From the IMG/VR virus record IMGVR_UViG_3300014202_000218, positions 1 through 48,335 of that record: 48,335 nt of DNA; one strand, given 5' to 3'. Shown here piece after piece: positions 5,854 through 48,218 of this stretch. A program made the translations under genes and the position numbers. The first letter of the stretch is position 1. The number at the start of each line of letters is the position of its first letter. The notes under the pieces are model-generated. The model made no database searches and was not told where the DNA came from. It saw only the letters and a list, made by a program, of their open reading frames with translations. The DNA comes from a virus (lineage: Duplodnaviria; Caudoviricetes).

Positions 5854-5929
5854 GGACCACTAGCTCAAAGGTTAGAGCACCCGGCTCATAATCGGATGGT
5901 TCTAGGTTCAAGTCCTAGGTGGTCCACCA
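5854..5929 (+). tRNA. tRNA with CAT anticodon, most likely tRNA-Ile2 (lysidine)
   Basis: GGACCAC/GTGGTCC acceptor stem, D arm, CTCATAA loop, TTCAAGT T loop, encoded CCA; C4-G69/C5-G68 pairs as in Ile2 tRNAs. Confidence 0.92.
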
Positions 5930-7976: not shown

Positions 7977-8420
7977 ATGGCAAAATCTCTTACGCCCAGA
8001 CCGCCTAAGCATATACATAAACTTAAACGCCACAAGTACTCTAATGGCGAGGAAGTATATTTTTGTATGCTACCTCGGTGTAGGTTTAAGGTTATTACTG
8101 CTATGGCTCTTGGTGAGGAATCAATTTGCCATCGCTGTGATAAGCCTTTCATCATGAACGAGATTACAATACGGCTCTCTAAACCACATTGTAGTCTCTG
8201 TACCGTGAGAAAAGGTAATAAAGAGGATATTACACCAATACTAGACGTAGCCGTATCTACGATTCTACCAGAGCGTCGACGTTCTACTCTTATACAAGAA
8301 GGAGATCATGTCTCAGACCTCAGGTCAAGACTCTCTAGGGTTAAAGGACAAGATACTGTACTACCTGATTCTACTCTATCATCATCTGAGGGACTTCCTC
8401 CTGATGAGGATATGGTGTAG
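7977..8420 (+). CDS. Zn-finger protein
   Basis: HxH, CMLPRC, CHRC, CSLC; GAGG RBS. Confidence 0.75.
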   Translation: MAKSLTPRPPKHIHKLKRHKYSNGEEVYFCMLPRCRFKVITAMALGEESICHRCDKPFIMNEITIRLSKPHCSLCTVRKGNKEDITPILDVAVSTILPERRRSTLIQEGDHVSDLRSRLSRVKGQDTVLPDSTLSSSEGLPPDEDMV

Positions 8421-12289: not shown

Positions 12290-12521
12290 GGACTATACAC
12301 ATATTCGGTTCCCTGCGCACTCTCTACCTGGAATAGTTACTAGAATATGTGGCGTAACTGAGGGTGAATCTATTAGCTTTGAGCATTATGGAGAGAGGCA
12401 CATCAAGCCGGCAATATTAGGACAACTAGAACGGCTCCCATATCCACTATGCACAGACTGTATAGAGATATGTAGAGAAGCTTCTGATACAACTATATGC
12501 CCAACAGAGTCAACGGAATAG
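12219..12521 (+). CDS. Small Zn-binding hypothetical protein (start uncertain)
   Basis: H...ICG...LCTDC; fills the gap before the polymerase. Confidence 0.5.
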   Translation: MLDKPSSEVSLSEEIVPDKTSSPKDYTHIRFPAHSLPGIVTRICGVTEGESISFEHYGERHIKPAILGQLERLPYPLCTDCIEICREASDTTICPTESTE

Positions 12522-15040
12522 GTCCCCTAAATGCTAAACTGATGATAGTAGGGGAAGCTCCAGGTAGGGCCGAAGATGAGACTGGCACTCCATTTGTAGG
12601 CCCAAGTGGTGAGATATTAGATGATCTACTCAGCCGTTCTGGTATCTCTAGGTCGGACGTATATATCACTAATGTAGTGAAGGTACGTCCACCTAATAAT
12701 ATCTGGGAAGCTCTCCCCTCTATCGGCATATCAGTACAAGAGGAGACACAGAAGCTATGGGAATTTGAGATAAACAAGATCCAACCCAATGCCATACTAG
12801 CCGTTGGCGATAAAGCCCTTACTGCCCTAACAGCAGAATCAGGAATAACCAACTGGAGAGGCTCTATTATACAGGGGAGGGATGGAATACAGAAGGTAGT
12901 TGCTACACTACATCCTGCTGTTCTATTCCCTCACCCCGGTAAACCAGCTTGGCCCTGGGTCTGGAAACGGCTGATAGAGAATGATGTACGTAAAGCAGTT
13001 CGTCAATCAACGTTTAAAGGATTCAATCTCCCTGAACGTACTCTTACAGTAGCACATAGCTATCATCAGGTATACAAGTTCTTTCAGGAATACCGTCTCT
13101 GTAAGAAAGCAGCTAATGACATAGAGTCAATTAATTCAATACCTGTATGTACTGGATTTGCATTCAATAAACATCACGCTCTATCCATTCCTCTTCTACA
13201 TAAGGCAGGTAAGAATCGTCTATCTGATATGACAGCTCATGAGGTAGCCCAGTGCTGGAAACTCATTCAGGAGGTATTTTCCACTGGCCTAGGTATCATT
13301 GGTCATAACTACATGTATGATGAGTTCAAACAAAATCTTCTTGGATTCCATGAGATTAACTGCGTATCCGATACGAAGCTCAAGGTTCATACTATATTCC
13401 CTGAACTCCCAGATAAAGACCTAGCTACCTGTCTCTCACTCTGGACTGACGAGCCGTTCTACAAAGAGGAAGGCAAAGAGCCAAAGTTTGGCCTGTTCAA
13501 CGTAGAGAAATTCTTCAAATACAATGCAAAAGACTGTGCTGCTACATTTGAACTTGACGAGGAAATGGAGTGCTCTCTTCAGGCTCTTGAGGATAAGCTC
13601 CATATCCCTCTGCGAAAATTCTATTACGACTATGTCATGCGGAAGCACGGATTCTACCTCCGCATGGCTAACAACGGCTTCCGTGTTGATCACAGACAAA
13701 AAGATATTCTTAAAGGTGCGTATGAATACCTTAGAGAAGTTGCCCATGAACATCTCGTCTCCCTCATAGGCACAGAGATTAATGTAAAGTCCGCTCCTCA
13801 GATGAAGAAGCTTCTCTATGAGGATATGGGCTTTACTATGCCTAAGAAGTGGACACCGAACGGCCAGATAGATAAAGATGGTGCTACGTCTGAAGATCAA
13901 ATCATCAATCTCATTAACGTACATTGCCGCTCTGGCCCTAACGTTAATCTGAAACGCTCTATTCTCGAAGGTATTCTACAAGAAAGGAGAATCAGGGATC
14001 AAATCTCTCGTGCTCTAGATTTTGTCCCTGACTATGATGGCCGCTGCAAAACATCGGTTAACATTGTCGGAACGGAGACTGCAAGAACTAGCACAGGAGT
14101 TCTCAAGAAACCCGTCAGACCTAAAAAGATTGGTCTTGGATTCCATACCATACCTAAACACGGACGACTTGCTAGAGATATCCGAAGCATGTTTATCCCA
14201 GATGAGGGCTTTGTTTTCATTCAAGGTGACCTCTCGCAAGCGGAAGCGCGGATAGTAGCCGTTCTGGCAGAGGATTGGGAGTTACTAAAAGCCTTTGATA
14301 TCATAGACATCCACCGCAGGACGGCTGCCATATTCTTTGGGTATACTAAGAATCTTGTTCTTACACCGGATTTCATTAAAGGTGTAGATGACCTAGAGAA
14401 AGATGGAGCAGAGCGTTATACTGGTAAGACATTCCGCCATGCTGGTAACTATGATATGGGCAAGCATACGGCTATGGTTAACTACAATACCAATGCCCAG
14501 AAGTATGAGATCAACACGGTCATATCCGAGTATCGCGCTGGAGAACACATTAGGAAATTCCACGAGGCATCTCCTAATATTAGAGCCGTCTTCCACCGAG
14601 ATATTCGTTTAGCTCTAGATTCGTCTCGTATTCTCATCAACCCATACGGACGCCCTAGAGAGTTCAATGGTAAGTATGAAGATGATCTATACAAAGAAGG
14701 ATTCGCACAGATACCACAGTCAACAGTAGCAGATACTACCCAGTCAGCCGGTATCTCAGCATGGGATGAATGGGGTCATGATTCACGTATTGCAATGTTC
14801 ATGTCAGAGAATCACGATGCTCTTGTGGCACAGGTACCGCTGAACGGCTGGAGAGATTATGCTAAATCACTCAAGCGACACATGGAAAGGGATATTGATT
14901 TTTCCACTTATTGTACTCTTCGCAGAAATTATACACTTCGTATCCCCGTTGATATTGAAGTATCTATTAACCCTTCTACGGGCCGAGTAACAAACTACGG
15001 CGAACTCACGAAGTGGACTAAGATAAAGGAGGCTGCGTGA
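12497..15040 (+). CDS. polA: Family A DNA polymerase with N-terminal family-4 uracil-DNA glycosylase domain and 3'-5' exonuclease
   Basis: GEAPG..E...G.PFVG, NVVK.RPP.N, HPA (UDG); DIE, GHNYMYD, YNAKD (exo); TARTS, DLSQAEAR, RYTGKTFRHAGNY, NHDAL (pol motifs). Confidence 0.95.
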   Translation: MPNRVNGIGPLNAKLMIVGEAPGRAEDETGTPFVGPSGEILDDLLSRSGISRSDVYITNVVKVRPPNNIWEALPSIGISVQEETQKLWEFEINKIQPNAILAVGDKALTALTAESGITNWRGSIIQGRDGIQKVVATLHPAVLFPHPGKPAWPWVWKRLIENDVRKAVRQSTFKGFNLPERTLTVAHSYHQVYKFFQEYRLCKKAANDIESINSIPVCTGFAFNKHHALSIPLLHKAGKNRLSDMTAHEVAQCWKLIQEVFSTGLGIIGHNYMYDEFKQNLLGFHEINCVSDTKLKVHTIFPELPDKDLATCLSLWTDEPFYKEEGKEPKFGLFNVEKFFKYNAKDCAATFELDEEMECSLQALEDKLHIPLRKFYYDYVMRKHGFYLRMANNGFRVDHRQKDILKGAYEYLREVAHEHLVSLIGTEINVKSAPQMKKLLYEDMGFTMPKKWTPNGQIDKDGATSEDQIINLINVHCRSGPNVNLKRSILEGILQERRIRDQISRALDFVPDYDGRCKTSVNIVGTETARTSTGVLKKPVRPKKIGLGFHTIPKHGRLARDIRSMFIPDEGFVFIQGDLSQAEARIVAVLAEDWELLKAFDIIDIHRRTAAIFFGYTKNLVLTPDFIKGVDDLEKDGAERYTGKTFRHAGNYDMGKHTAMVNYNTNAQKYEINTVISEYRAGEHIRKFHEASPNIRAVFHRDIRLALDSSRILINPYGRPREFNGKYEDDLYKEGFAQIPQSTVADTTQSAGISAWDEWGHDSRIAMFMSENHDALVAQVPLNGWRDYAKSLKRHMERDIDFSTYCTLRRNYTLRIPVDIEVSINPSTGRVTNYGELTKWTKIKEAA

Positions 15041-16348: not shown

Positions 16349-17588
16349 TTATGTAGATGATGTACTCGAGGAATGTAACGATGTGGAGACACCTCGGGAT
16401 TGGATATACTGGAGTCTAATATGTACGATAGCTGCCGCAGCGGGTAGTGACTATTTTCTTGTTGCCTTTAATGGGAAGGTAACGTACAAACCAAATATCT
16501 ACACTATACTTATGGGAGAATCAGGATTAGGTAAGCAGTTTCCTGTATCTCTAGCTAAGAATCTTGTAGACCGTTCCGATACAACTCGTGTTATTTATGG
16601 ACGTTCATCCATTCAGGCTATAGTCAATGACATCTCCAAAACCAAACAACGAGAGCGTGGAAGTACTATTATGGATAGTCGTTGTTTCATTGTCAATGGT
16701 GAATTGTCTACTGCCATTATACAAGATCCACAAGCACTCACCATTCTTACTGACATCTACGATCCTCACACTAAGTGGGATAACACCCTTAAAGGAGATG
16801 GGTCAGGGGAAAAAGAGACTCTTACTGATCTTGCTACTACTGCTTTATTTGGCACAAGTCCATCTCACTTCTATGATTCTATCCCTCAAGTGAATATTGA
16901 AGGTGGATACATAGGCCGTAACCTCGTAATACGAGCAGAGAAACGCTACAAAGACCTTGATATGTTCTCAGATTCAGATGATGCTACTGACTTCCCATAT
17001 GCTAAATACGTAGAACACTTAGTAAAGATAGGCCAATCTGGTGGAAGGATGATACCAAATGCGGATGCTAAAGAGGCTATTAACTCCTTCCGCCGTAAAT
17101 GGAGACAAGAGCAGAGGGAAGATACAGTAGGATTCCTGAATCGAGTACCAGATCATATCATTAAAGTAGCCATGTGTCTCTGTCTTGCAGACTATGACTC
17201 GTATCGTACTCTCGTTATAAACCAGTCACATATTGAAGAAGCTATAGAAAAGGTTCTCCCATTAGCCCATACTACGAGGACAGTAACAGCAGGCTTAGGT
17301 GAAGATCCTATAGCTAAGCATACACGAGCCGTTATTGATTTTCTCATCAAGGCTCCAGAGCATAGACTCACTAGACGCCAGCTACTATCTAAGGGTTATG
17401 GAAACTATGATGCACCTGTTCTAGATCGTGTCTTAGCTACCCTTAATGAGGTAGGCTGGATTGAGACTATGCGTAAGATTGAATCGGGTTCTAACACTGA
17501 AGTAGAAATATCTCTACGAGGAGAGCCATTGAAGCAATACAATGATTACTTAGAGTCTCGTAAGAAGAAGGGAACGGCTAATGAGTAA
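16335..17588 (+). CDS. DUF3987-like AAA+ replicative helicase with C-terminal winged helix
   Basis: PNIYTILMGESGLGK, ELS, LFGTSP, GGYIGRNL, R....IKVAM. Confidence 0.8.
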   Translation: MLQPNYVDDVLEECNDVETPRDWIYWSLICTIAAAAGSDYFLVAFNGKVTYKPNIYTILMGESGLGKQFPVSLAKNLVDRSDTTRVIYGRSSIQAIVNDISKTKQRERGSTIMDSRCFIVNGELSTAIIQDPQALTILTDIYDPHTKWDNTLKGDGSGEKETLTDLATTALFGTSPSHFYDSIPQVNIEGGYIGRNLVIRAEKRYKDLDMFSDSDDATDFPYAKYVEHLVKIGQSGGRMIPNADAKEAINSFRRKWRQEQREDTVGFLNRVPDHIIKVAMCLCLADYDSYRTLVINQSHIEEAIEKVLPLAHTTRTVTAGLGEDPIAKHTRAVIDFLIKAPEHRLTRRQLLSKGYGNYDAPVLDRVLATLNEVGWIETMRKIESGSNTEVEISLRGEPLKQYNDYLESRKKKGTANE

Positions 17589-17826
17589 CGCTAAACTCAC
17601 CGGCCGTATTAAGAAGCCTAACAGCCGTGGATTCGGATTCATTGAGACGGCTGAAGGAATAGACTTCTTCTTCCACTATTCATCCTTCGATGGAGACTGG
17701 AAGAAGATGCTATCTAGTTACCTCGCTAATAATAACCTCGTGGTAGAGTTTGAGAATGACCCTACTACGATAGATGGACCTAAAGCTAAAAACGTTAAGA
17801 TTATAGGAACGGAGTCAGACCGATGA
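17581..17826 (+). CDS. Cold-shock domain protein
   Basis: RGFGFI (RNP1), FFFHYS (RNP2), GPKAKNV. Confidence 0.88.
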   Translation: MSNAKLTGRIKKPNSRGFGFIETAEGIDFFFHYSSFDGDWKKMLSSYLANNNLVVEFENDPTTIDGPKAKNVKIIGTESDR

Positions 17827-44898: not shown

Positions 44899-44944
44899 CT
44901 ATATACTGATGTCGGGAGTTGGTGAGAACAAGGCAGTAGAGGAT

Positions 44945-45103: not shown

Positions 45104-45153
45104 ACAAGCAATAACTGACCGCTAGGCGTTATTACTTGTTCGCTCTTTGACAA
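45104..45153 (+). promoter_or_regulatory. Hairpin plus boxA antitermination element
   Basis: acaagcaataac/gttattacttgt stem followed by CGCTCTTTGACAA (rrn boxA is TGCTCTTTAACAA). Confidence 0.75.
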
Positions 45154-45292
45154 TTGAATACTATCAGCGCGATTGCCAGCTAGTATAGGCAACATGCACC
45201 GATAAGACTAGATGATGTTTATCTAGGGATACCGGATAATGCCAACTATACTAATCCAAGATAAGGCGGAAAATGGCAACGTGAGCATAGAA

Positions 45293-45996
45293 GGATACCA
45301 TACTACAGTATCCTATTCTCTATAGAGCTATCCACATAGTAGGATAGCTCTAGTGGTGACACAGTGTGTAGGTAATCAATCCTACGTCCCCTTATAACGA
45401 CAAATCGCCTGAAAGACGGCTAGGTTATAAGCTCGTTAAAATCCACTGTGTTACCTCTTGAGCTATCCTACACAAAGGACGGCTCAATATGATGATAGGT
45501 AACCGTGAGTATCGTGTAAAAGTAGATGCGGGAGTGATTCGTCATATTCCTATCATCAATAACCCTCCGCCTAGTCCAGTGTTTTACTCACTGTTTGAGC
45601 GAAAGGTTACTGGTGAGTATATACAAATTCGCTCCGCAGTCTACACCAGCGAGATGGAGGCGTTCCGAGTCTTCAGGGATGCTATTGCGAAAGCTCCATT
45701 GTCGCTCTCGATACGGAAGGCGAGAGTGAAGCGGAATAGAGCGCAAGGAGTGAGTAGGTTTCGAGGGGAAAGTTATAATGAGTGGCGAGATAGTCCGCTC
45801 AGGGAGAGGGAGAAGCGAGTAGGGAAATTCGACTGGAAGAAAGCTCAAGCCAATGATAAGGATTGAGGTAACAGTCTTGTTAGTGGTTTGGGTGGTGTGT
45901 CTATATCTGATGGTAAAACATCGGGTATGGTGGTAGTGGTGGAGATAGTGGATAGTTCTATAGAGGATAGGATAGTGTGGTGTGACAATGGTATCC
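45293..45996 (+). repeat. Long imperfect inverted repeat enclosing ORF 45489-45866
   Basis: 45293-45335 pairs with 45948-45996. Confidence 0.85.
45489..45866 (+). CDS. Basic early hypothetical protein
   Basis: 125 aa, AAGGA upstream; first ORF after P1/P2. Confidence 0.6.
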   Translation: MMIGNREYRVKVDAGVIRHIPIINNPPPSPVFYSLFERKVTGEYIQIRSAVYTSEMEAFRVFRDAIAKAPLSLSIRKARVKRNRAQGVSRFRGESYNEWRDSPLREREKRVGKFDWKKAQANDKD

Positions 45997-46100
45997 AGGA
46001 CGGCTCTAGGGAGTATTGTAGGCTCTGAAGTGTAGAGCTTATGATACTCTCTAAGACGTCCGCCAATAGATATGATAGTGTGTATGTGTAAGGGAAGAGT

Positions 46101-46588
46101 AGACATACAAAGACTATCTGTTCTATAGGGTGATGGATTGGACTGTAGTAGAACGATCTAAACTCTAGGTATGGGAGGAGGAAAAAATGAGTGAAGAACT
46201 AGAGTTTAGGATTGTGCTAGCTCTAAAGCTTGTTCTGCAAGTACATAAGGACAAGAGCTACGCAGAGTGGGCGCAAAAGTGGATTAGTGGAGAAGATAGA
46301 AGTAGAGAGTCTGCCGCTAATGCTGCTTATGCTACCGCTAATGCTGCTTATGCTGTTTATGCTGCTGCTTATGCTGCCGCTTATGCTGCTTATGCTTCTC
46401 ATGCTTCTCATGCTGCTCATGCTATTAGTGGAAGCCTGAGAACTGGAGCTAAGCTATCACTAGTAGTTAAGTTCGTAGAGTAGTGGGGTAGGGAGTAGTA
46501 GAGTAGGGAGTAGAAAGAAGAGTTTAGATTGTAAGTCTATAGTGAAATACAATCCATCCACCTATAGAGCAGATAGGATAGTATGTCT
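46101..46588 (+). repeat. Long imperfect inverted repeat enclosing ORF 46187-46483
   Basis: 46101-46166 pairs with 46519-46588. Confidence 0.85.
46187..46483 (+). CDS. Ala-rich repeat protein
   Basis: GGAGGAGG RBS; WAQKWISGEDRS followed by AAY/ASH repeats encoded by gctgcttat-type tandem units. Confidence 0.75.
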   Translation: MSEELEFRIVLALKLVLQVHKDKSYAEWAQKWISGEDRSRESAANAAYATANAAYAVYAAAYAAAYAAYASHASHAAHAISGSLRTGAKLSLVVKFVE

Positions 46589-46887
46589 CCGGTGAAGAAC
46601 GAGACAAAAACATACTATGCTATCTGTTCCATCGTAAGAGTAGGAGATATGCTAGAGTGAACACAAGTAGTGGAATAGGCTCAGTCAACGTGCTGAGGTA
46701 ATCCTATCCTCCGCGAACCATTCTAGTGTATACTATACGGCAAAAGAAGGAATGGGATGAGTTATGTAGAACCATACATATCGCTACCCTGTGACTCACT
46801 TACCGTATAGTCGTAATATAAGGGTAAGATGTTATATTACGCTCACTGTAGCCTAAAGTGGACAGTATGGGTCGTAAGGATTAACAG

Positions 46888-46917
46888 TTGACAACTGAGA
46901 ACGGAGTGTGATATAAT
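46888..46917 (+). promoter_or_regulatory. Sigma70 promoter with a palindrome over the -35
   Basis: TTGACA-18-TATAAT with TG; cagttgacaactg dyad at 46885-46897. Confidence 0.75.
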
Positions 46918-46993: not shown

Positions 46994-47416
46994 ATGGCAG
47001 CACTGGCGGTAAAGAAGGGTAAGACTCGTGGTAAGAATCCTCGTGAGATTGAATACGAGGCATTCGATTTGGAACAGCCGGATAGTCTCCCGAAGACTCT
47101 CGAAGAGTTCTCTGCGGTGACGAAGGTTGATACTGAGGCTGAGCTCGTTAGCCTTCTGATTAATGGATTCAACGATAGCCAATACTCTGCTGCGTCGGAT
47201 GAGATTGGTGAGTTCATTAATGATGCTTGGGATAAGGATACTCAGGCTCAGTTCCGGCTGGCAGTTCGTAATACTTCCAAGATGACTGGTATGTCAATCG
47301 AGGATGTTGTTACGATGATGAAGCCTGCGGTTGAGAAGGGTTGGGCAGCTAAGGTTGAGGCTCGTGAGAAGGCTAAGGCTGATGAGAAGGCTAAGGCTGA
47401 GGCTGTGACTGCGTAG
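46994..47416 (+). CDS. Highly expressed early hypothetical protein (140 aa)
   Basis: AGGAG RBS before ATG 46994; ATG 46916 overlaps the -10 box; strong GCT/AAG/GAG codon bias. Confidence 0.8.
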   Translation: MAALAVKKGKTRGKNPREIEYEAFDLEQPDSLPKTLEEFSAVTKVDTEAELVSLLINGFNDSQYSAASDEIGEFINDAWDKDTQAQFRLAVRNTSKMTGMSIEDVVTMMKPAVEKGWAAKVEAREKAKADEKAKAEAVTA

Positions 47417-48130
47417 GAAGAAATAAAGATAGTCTGTCTACTCTCTAGATAGAGTTATCATATCTAATAAAAGGTCTAGGACGTAGTAAACCTTCTGTGA
47501 GAAGATGGATAGTCTTAGAGAATCTACACACACTCGACTATGCGAGTATAAATAGAGTTTAGGCATAGTGCGGATGTAGGGTATAGTAGAAAATATCTAT
47601 TATACTCTACATCGTAAAGCTAGTAACGGTATCCACACCTGTGCACAGGTTTGATGGAGAGATAAGCCTAGCAGGATGTATCCAGTGGAGATGGTCTTTT
47701 GGATATACTCTGGTAATATAAGACGATTCATTCTAGAGTAGAGCTACCCGGTATCTTGTAGCCTAGGATGTTAACTAGAATCCGGGAGCTAATGTATAGA
47801 AGGTATCTATTAGAAGGTATCTTCTATAGATTGGCTAACTAGCTAATCTCTGTAACGTTCTCAATTGGTAGTCTGACGAACGAACAGTATTAATGACTAT
47901 CCAGGGTATGAGTAGGTTACCCTTTCATAACTCATCCTGTTATAAACCAAAGGGAGCTAATCTTCTCCGGTAATACTCCAGACAGAGACTAGAGGGATGC
48001 ACCGTTATAGTGACTATCATCATTACCATTCATACACTGTAGCGACGTCATTCTAGTCTCTATCCGGGTTATTAGTGGAGTAGAGCATGAGTATAATACT
48101 ACATTTGTATTATTCTTTAGCTATCTCAAC
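47417..48130 (+). ncRNA. ORF-free, hairpin-dense region; candidate structured RNA
   Basis: gatgtagggtatagtaga/tctattatactctacatc, tatagaaggtatct/aggtatcttctata, agagactagag...atagtg/cactgt...ttctagtctct; G-U pairs on the + strand. Confidence 0.55.
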
Positions 48131-48139
48131 CATAACAGC

Positions 48140-48195
48140 TACCGTTTGATACCGTTGCTTACCGAGACATACCGTTGGATACCGCGAGAATCCGC
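48140..48195 (-). repeat. Five tandem 10-bp repeats plus GCGGAT, inverted relative to 165-220
   Basis: Reverse complement reads gcggat tctcgcggta tccaacggta tgtctcggta agcaacggta tcaaacggta. Confidence 0.95.
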
Positions 48196-48218
48196 GAGTC
48201 TACGGGAGTGGGAATGGC

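Follow-up and report, generated by a model that had tools for sequence, protein, structure and literature searches.

The first gene of the early transcript of this uncultured phage lies between two arms that pair into a long RNA stem about 600 nt apart. The arms are interpreted as conserved gene-enclosing stems of the early transcript, in the leader-trailer layout of ribosomal RNA (rRNA), which host RNase III likely cuts, freeing messages of small genes with paired and likely protected ends; this is held to be the probable interpretation, with modest confidence. Since the arms stay paired across relatives while the enclosed genes are swapped, a fold resembling that of a ribosomal-RNA precursor is predicted for the message. 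A likeness to pre-rRNA processing stems had been proposed by the initial annotation, and it is supported by arms that bracket ORFs and by a boxA of the rRNA type located upstream.

The DNA analysed here (the window) is a whole virus record of 48,335 nt, with genes for a terminase, an SNF2 helicase, a family A polymerase and a primase recognized by Pfam and PHROG. Annotated phages gave no match to its early region, to its 139-aa anchor protein (see below) or to terL. The early region is on the + strand, as are its genes, arms, hairpins, promoter matches, boxA and ribozyme described below; it starts near 44,900 and continues across the contig end as far as about 750. All eight + strand helices scoring at least 49 are located there, and the top score elsewhere is 40.5. 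A Pfam scan of 61 ORFs, most of which had no match of any kind, found no RNA ligase, RNase III, integrase or recombinase family. Rfam contains no family for the stems, and its miRNA-type matches remained below the gathering score. Further long local helices occur in the noncoding early region (279-420, 645-755, 47787-47836, and 47961-48084). Inverted arrays of repeats of about 10 nt, at 48137-48201 and 159-221 across the contig ends, surround an AT-rich tract. Arrays arranged in this way are present in relatives too, where the repeat units differ and strand bias is absent. They are likely a replication origin or a genome end. Outside the early region, the window carries a tRNA-Met(CAT) (5854-5929), a family A DNA polymerase that carries a fused uracil-DNA glycosylase domain (12497-15040), and a cold-shock domain protein (17581-17826), which is a possible RNA chaperone.

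Stem 1 is formed by a 5′ arm at 45293..45335 and a 3′ arm at 45948..45996. Duplex folding gave 42 bp and -68.4 kcal/mol, and the antisense strand was weaker (-52.6 kcal/mol). In detail, the outer part begins with 9 bp (45293-45301 with 45988-45996) and, beyond a bulge of 6 nt in the 3′ arm, adds 6 bp more, followed by a G.G mismatch (45308/45975) and by an inner part of 27 uninterrupted pairs (45309-45335 with 45948-45974). With 27 unbroken pairs and 15 more, its length fits an RNase III helix of about two turns; stems of the family span 24-37 positions. The helix score of 74 stands far above the maximum of 50.5 in 300 dinucleotide shuffles, and the 801-nt region around the stem folds with a z of -11.5 against 20 shuffles. 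The pairing of these two arms, as first proposed, is thus found where it had been placed.

Inside stem 1, an inner stem of 26-28 bp (45339-45366 with 45444-45471) ends just before the ribosome-binding site (RBS); it is absent from the relatives’ cassettes that were seen. The enclosed gene, ORF1 (45489..45866, 125 codons), is the first ORF of at least 40 codons downstream of two promoter matches, in agreement with its earlier description as the first of the early genes. It has no Pfam or PHROG match, and its best Atlas score (0.81) is under the acceptance bar. Homologues of ORF1 are present in four relatives, that is, loci L001 (44% identity), L012, L023, and L028, and they are stem-enclosed there too.

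Co-transcriptional folding snapshots, which represent equilibrium and not kinetics, predict the following order: local hairpins, then the inner stem once 45475 is reached, and the long helix from 45960. A transient local hairpin (45325..45350), which excludes both stem 1 and the inner stem, is predicted at a probability of 1.0 until transcription reaches about 45460. The inner stem displaces it in the snapshots, and thereby the 5′ arm of stem 1 is freed for the long helix. Both the second long stem and the mutually exclusive hairpins of the initial annotation are therefore recovered, the hairpins as a prediction. That annotation had missed a second stem-enclosed gene, the boxA and a pistol ribozyme.

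The second cassette follows after a spacer hairpin of 21 bp (46007..46053). Stem 2 pairs a 5′ arm at 46114..46166, with an outer extension from about 46066, to a 3′ arm at 46519..46576, with an outer extension to about 46627; a local hairpin at 46564-46632 is the alternative fold of the latter. Including the extensions it comprises 64 pairs, and the second early gene, ORF2 (46187..46483, 98 aa, with Ala-rich repeats and a weak match to phrog_38757), thus has its own stem. A perfect extended sigma-70 match at 46888..46917 is the candidate promoter of the next transcript; a near-perfect promoter precedes the anchor gene in most relatives. The anchor gene itself (46997..47416), a conserved gene of 139 aa with 143 homologues, belongs to no Pfam or PHROG family and is not stem-enclosed in the window.

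A pistol ribozyme (47532..47586), above the Rfam gathering score and outside the stems, starts 115 nt past the anchor gene; extended to 47620, it has an 18-bp P3-like hairpin. Pistols were also found in relatives (L001/L022, L018, L023, L025, L026/L027, L284, L285, and L290), with compensatory pseudoknot letters and one variable position. Phage genes with pistols nearby are already known (PMC4604425). After the pistol, a 44-nt motif is 82% conserved between the window (47856-47899) and L001 (4264-4290, - strand). It can be drawn as an H-type pseudoknot with a hammerhead-like CUGACGA, and has no Rfam match; of 306 loci, only those that are copies of the L001 virus carry the exact pattern.

Upstream of stem 1, there are two tandem sigma-70-type matches, P1 (44945..44973) and P2 (45051..45079), each with 10 of 12 positions; these are consensus matches only, in a region with 10 such sites against 8.6 expected by chance. 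Loci L023 and L028 have three tandem promoter matches in the equivalent position. A predicted hairpin (45104..45139), in a boxB-like position, directly precedes boxA (45142..45160). All 19 nt of this boxA are identical to sites of bacterial rrn leaders and spacers, and it is unique in the window when up to 2 mismatches are allowed. This boxA is promoter-proximal and untranslated, 63 nt after P2 with the hairpin ahead, and the same applies to L023 and L028.

The 19-nt motif was found in at least 120 loci of bacterial genomes; among the matches listed, 41 were too short and 79 informative. An rRNA start lies 44-327 nt past the motif in 33 of the 79 informative loci listed (16S in 18, 23S in 15, neither in 46), as called with short rRNA-start motifs. 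Because the motif precedes 16S and 23S starts in bacteria, it is classified as a boxA of rrn type. In a set of 46 of the 120 bacterial loci listed (L151-L223), an exact rrn-type boxA is accompanied by neither an rRNA start in the flank nor an enclosing helix. The boxA of the window is placed 151 nt upstream of the 5′ arm of stem 1. It has no pairing partner in the window and is not paired into the arm, unlike those rrn helices that start within boxA or directly beside it. A downstream pairing partner for boxA was considered and rejected, as it was seen in L020 alone and was not above background.

The gene-in-stem layout is repeated among the relatives, with L012, L020, L023, L026, L027, and L028 as examples. 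In L001, the ORF1 homologue is inside a 30-bp stem of unrelated sequence. For an unbiased set, 37 of the 143 anchor-gene homologues were aligned and 32 loci taken, of which 28 remained after merging near-identical ones. A helix scoring at least 45 was present in the 1.5 kb upstream of the anchor gene in 12 of the 28 nonredundant loci and in none of 24 control segments. Eleven of these 12 loci have gene-enclosing helices, and the other (L275) has an origin-type repeat. At the ungapped threshold of 45, 17 of the 28 loci are without a gene-enclosing helix, several of them with upstream ORFs. Each of the 18 helices in the 11 stem-bearing loci has at least one ORF inside, one or two being the arrangement found. 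In 15 of the 18, only 5-33 nt separate the last stop codon from the 3′ arm, and the arms are 13-24 nt from most start codons. Arrays of three cassettes are found in L282, L286, and L295.

In three loci (L023, L001, and L295), a single 5′ arm can pair with either of two 3′ arms located behind different genes, for instance, 2708-2724 with 4152-4168 in L023 and 8275-8298 with 9119-9142 in L001 (reverse). Such arms could yield alternative processed units or record duplication. Also in L023, the RBS and start codon of the ORF1 homologue are part of a 17-bp helix (2811-2827 with 2913-2929) whose other strand is supplied by the coding sequence of that gene.

The cargo genes differ between homologous arms (the second genes of L023 and L028 are an example), the 3′ arm of L001 is duplicated and recurs after the next gene, and near-identical arms are found on successive cassettes of L295. 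All three observations would also be expected if the arms acted on the DNA, as inverted repeats for recombination or as single-stranded DNA hairpins by which cassettes are swapped or inverted. This reading is very improbable. No inverted cargo was found in any relative locus compared, and no integrase or recombinase match exists among the 61 ORFs. Also against it is the strong strand asymmetry of the deviations from Watson-Crick pairing, although G-T wobble in one DNA strand is conceivable. When G-T and A-C were scored alike, as is needed because a score rewarding G-U biases the counts, the 27 stems contained 49 G-U against 5 A-C; 23 stems lean to G-U and none to A-C. The seven origin-type inverted repeats of the same family, used as a control, had 17 G-U and 16 A-C. 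For stem 1, the ungapped helix of 37 positions, picked by the score that rewards G-U, has four G-U deviations and no A-C. The excess of G-U in the stems, missing from the control repeats, indicates selection on the sense RNA. In the preferred reading as gene-enclosing RNA stems, the repeated arms may at the same time double as exchange points for cargo genes.

Compensatory changes lead in the same direction. Homologous arms of L023 and L028 (30 positions) differ by seven two-sided and two one-sided changes with no broken pair, and those of L026 and L027 (26 positions) by three two-sided and two one-sided changes, with two positions mismatched in one copy; both registers were set by hand on the shared core. 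In the 13 stems that were aligned on the G.G mismatch, 64 of 286 cells are two-sided changes, 14 one-sided, and 2 broken. As the stems were chosen for complementarity and many of them are related, the counting involves some circularity and non-independent cases, and it describes rather than tests the pairing. The initial annotation had taken the G-U pairs as a sign of RNA-level selection, and the strand asymmetry with its control, together with the compensatory changes, supports this. Of the checks it had called for, folding gave a strong structure and covariation gave compensatory change in the arms of relatives, but no relative is close enough for the window’s own arms to be aligned.

Mismatches within the stems are of a preferred kind. 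G.G accounts for 17 of the 28 mismatches and occurs in 16 of the 27 family stems, where 8.6% would be expected from composition (the stems not being independent). In stem 1 of the window it is near the outer end and not central. Three of 16 rrn helices have a G.G, at a G of boxA, and in the stems of unrelated phages it makes up 2 of 17 mismatches. A derivation of G.G from the rRNA cut site became less convincing when the comparison was widened from 5 to 15 rrn regions. In this phage family, the distribution suggests that G.G may mark a recognition site.

Such a recognition site bears on the alternative that the RNA stems form and are left uncut, as clamps that set the folding of each gene apart, protect the gene from ribonucleases or leave its RBS open and close to the stop codon. 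All evidence of RNA-level pairing fits this alternative as well. In addition, the predicted accessibility of the RBS rises from 0.35-0.40 to 0.74 when the long helix forms, the arms are close to most starts (13-24 nt) and most stops (5-33 nt), and decay and translation are known to be affected by long-range pairing of the RBS (PMC12697547). Nevertheless, stems of 25-37 bp exceed what a clamp needs and match the lengths of RNase III substrates (PMC11780869), and the G.G mismatch that they have in common is suggestive of a recognition site. A clamp that stays uncut is held to be unlikely.

Processing by host RNase III is the preferred reading, and the order of events is proposed as follows. Local hairpins would form first and be displaced by the inner stem, which would make the 5′ arm available for pairing when the 3′ arm emerges 600 nt further on. 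BoxA may recruit host NusB/NusE and hold the 5′ arm near the polymerase; for 16S rRNA, Nus factors on boxA have been proposed to tether the leader beside the stem arm (PMC4807359). The long helix would then be cut on both strands by host RNase III, possibly at or near the G.G mismatch, into single-gene pieces with paired ends. Cleavage is plausible from the length of the stems and from the published long-range targets of the enzyme, and the paired ends left by the cut would likely be stabilizing.

The opposite outcome of the same cut was also considered, namely, that RNase III acts once the gene is fully transcribed and destroys or silences the early message instead of stabilizing it. The helix can indeed form only after the whole ORF has been transcribed, the inner helix of L023 covers an RBS and a start codon, and RNase III cuts in long-range mRNA structures are among the events that initiate decay (PMC11780869). 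However, in most stems a cut at the centre would spare about 10 or more paired bases toward the gene, and strong tandem promoters with a boxA suit a high output. A timer of decay is therefore judged distinctly unlikely.

The initial annotation had further raised the possibility of a circular message, in which the ends are ligated after cleavage into a covalently closed mRNA. The stem does juxtapose both ends, the family carries pistol ribozymes, and circularized pre-rRNA intermediates are reported from archaea (PMC7758197). This part of the annotation found no support: there is no RNA ligase match among the 61 ORFs, and no ribozyme flanks the stem, the sole pistol of the window being 1.5 kb downstream in another transcript. 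The archaeal bulge-helix-bulge has two 3-nt bulges around a 4-bp helix, a geometry not present in stem 1, which has one 6-nt bulge and one mismatch. Circularization is the least probable of all the readings.

The relation of boxA to the stems was followed within and beyond the family. In the window and in L020, L023, L028, and L012 (a variant), boxA is 58-157 nt before the first stem. On the other hand, no recognizable boxA lies within 1800 nt in any of the 11 loci among L270-L301 that bear stems, and boxA without a stem occurs in L016, L271, L273, and L298. BoxA and stems are linked but separable. As most stem-bearing relatives are without boxA, its help in folding would be optional.

In 15 rrn regions, a helix spanning the rRNA begins at 16 of the 23 boxA sites. 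The boxA motif was also followed in 120 viral loci outside the family, of which 71 had enough flank and were collapsed to 45 clusters. By a gap-penalized complementarity score, a helix of at least 40 is opened within 60 nt of boxA in 14 of the 45 clusters and at 3 of 778 control anchors. Where an ORF was called (10 cases), the distance from its stop codon to the 3′ arm is 5-36 nt in 9. A version of the comparison based on duplex energy was dropped for poor separation, because control anchors scored as well. For 62 bacterial boxA loci, no helix scoring 40 was found within 900 nt.

A broader generalization would be that many unrelated phages pass their first messages through the rRNA maturation of the host. 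BoxA would recruit a Nus chaperone complex, stems would close around small genes and RNase III would cut at a marked site, so that clamped mRNAs, some of them ligated and circular, would outlive host shut-off, with the arms as plug-in sockets for early anti-host genes. In this full form, the generalization is unlikely.

The protein-coding use of the rRNA leader-trailer layout recurs both in a phage family and in unrelated phages. It also provides natural pairs that differ in boxA, cargo or mismatch, by which two open questions become testable on short RNAs: whether Nus factors are folding chaperones for long-range stems beyond rRNA, and whether a bacterial mRNA gains stability from ends that stay paired once RNase III has cut. 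The arms mark the location of fast-changing phage early genes and could become portable expression cassettes. A literature search, in which subscription journals were scarcely covered, found no description of stems of the rRNA type around the genes of a phage. What is new is the collection of stems across the family, the control for strand bias, the G.G mismatch as a signature, and the observation that boxA is uncoupled from the stems.

RNase III sites of T7 are local intergenic hairpins, whereas the helix of the present phage is formed from both sides of a gene and its product would keep the ends paired. The two systems are alike in the polycistronic early RNA made by host polymerase, which RNase III processes into mono- and dicistronic messages in T7 (PMC4858673), the cutting being known there and predicted here. 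With the lambdoid nut sites, the phage shares a boxA on the early transcript and, presumably, the use of host Nus factors (PMC11893012). Lambdoid-type boxA is used together with an N protein (PMC11893012), and no N-family Pfam match was found in the 61 ORFs, most of which match nothing at all. The differences are that here the hairpin precedes boxA, whereas boxB follows it in nut sites, that the sequence is of rrn type, and that nut sites are described without gene-enclosing helices in the text consulted.

A likeness in the pairing itself is offered by the long-range mRNA targets of RNase III in Bacillus subtilis, which are duplexes measuring 10-36 bp, their cuts being separated by as much as 505 nt (PMC11780869). 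Those are scattered sites in host mRNAs, whereas the helices described here bracket whole ORFs, recur as cassettes and keep their pairing by compensatory change.

The bacterial rrn operon combines a boxA, bound by NusB/NusE with NusA, NusG, and SuhB, and RNase III leader-trailer helices around 16S and 23S (PMC4807359). The early region of the phage resembles it in its tandem promoters, hairpin, exact boxA, and successive helices of 25-40 bp, each of them around a single unit and set apart from the next by a spacer hairpin. It differs in that the phage cargo is protein-coding mRNA, cargo and arms are exchangeable, the arm is about 150 nt from boxA, and boxA is missing in most stem-bearing relatives. 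Judged from sequence, the arrangement is a variant of the RNase III-type processing architecture, in which the stems are real and the processing role is predicted.
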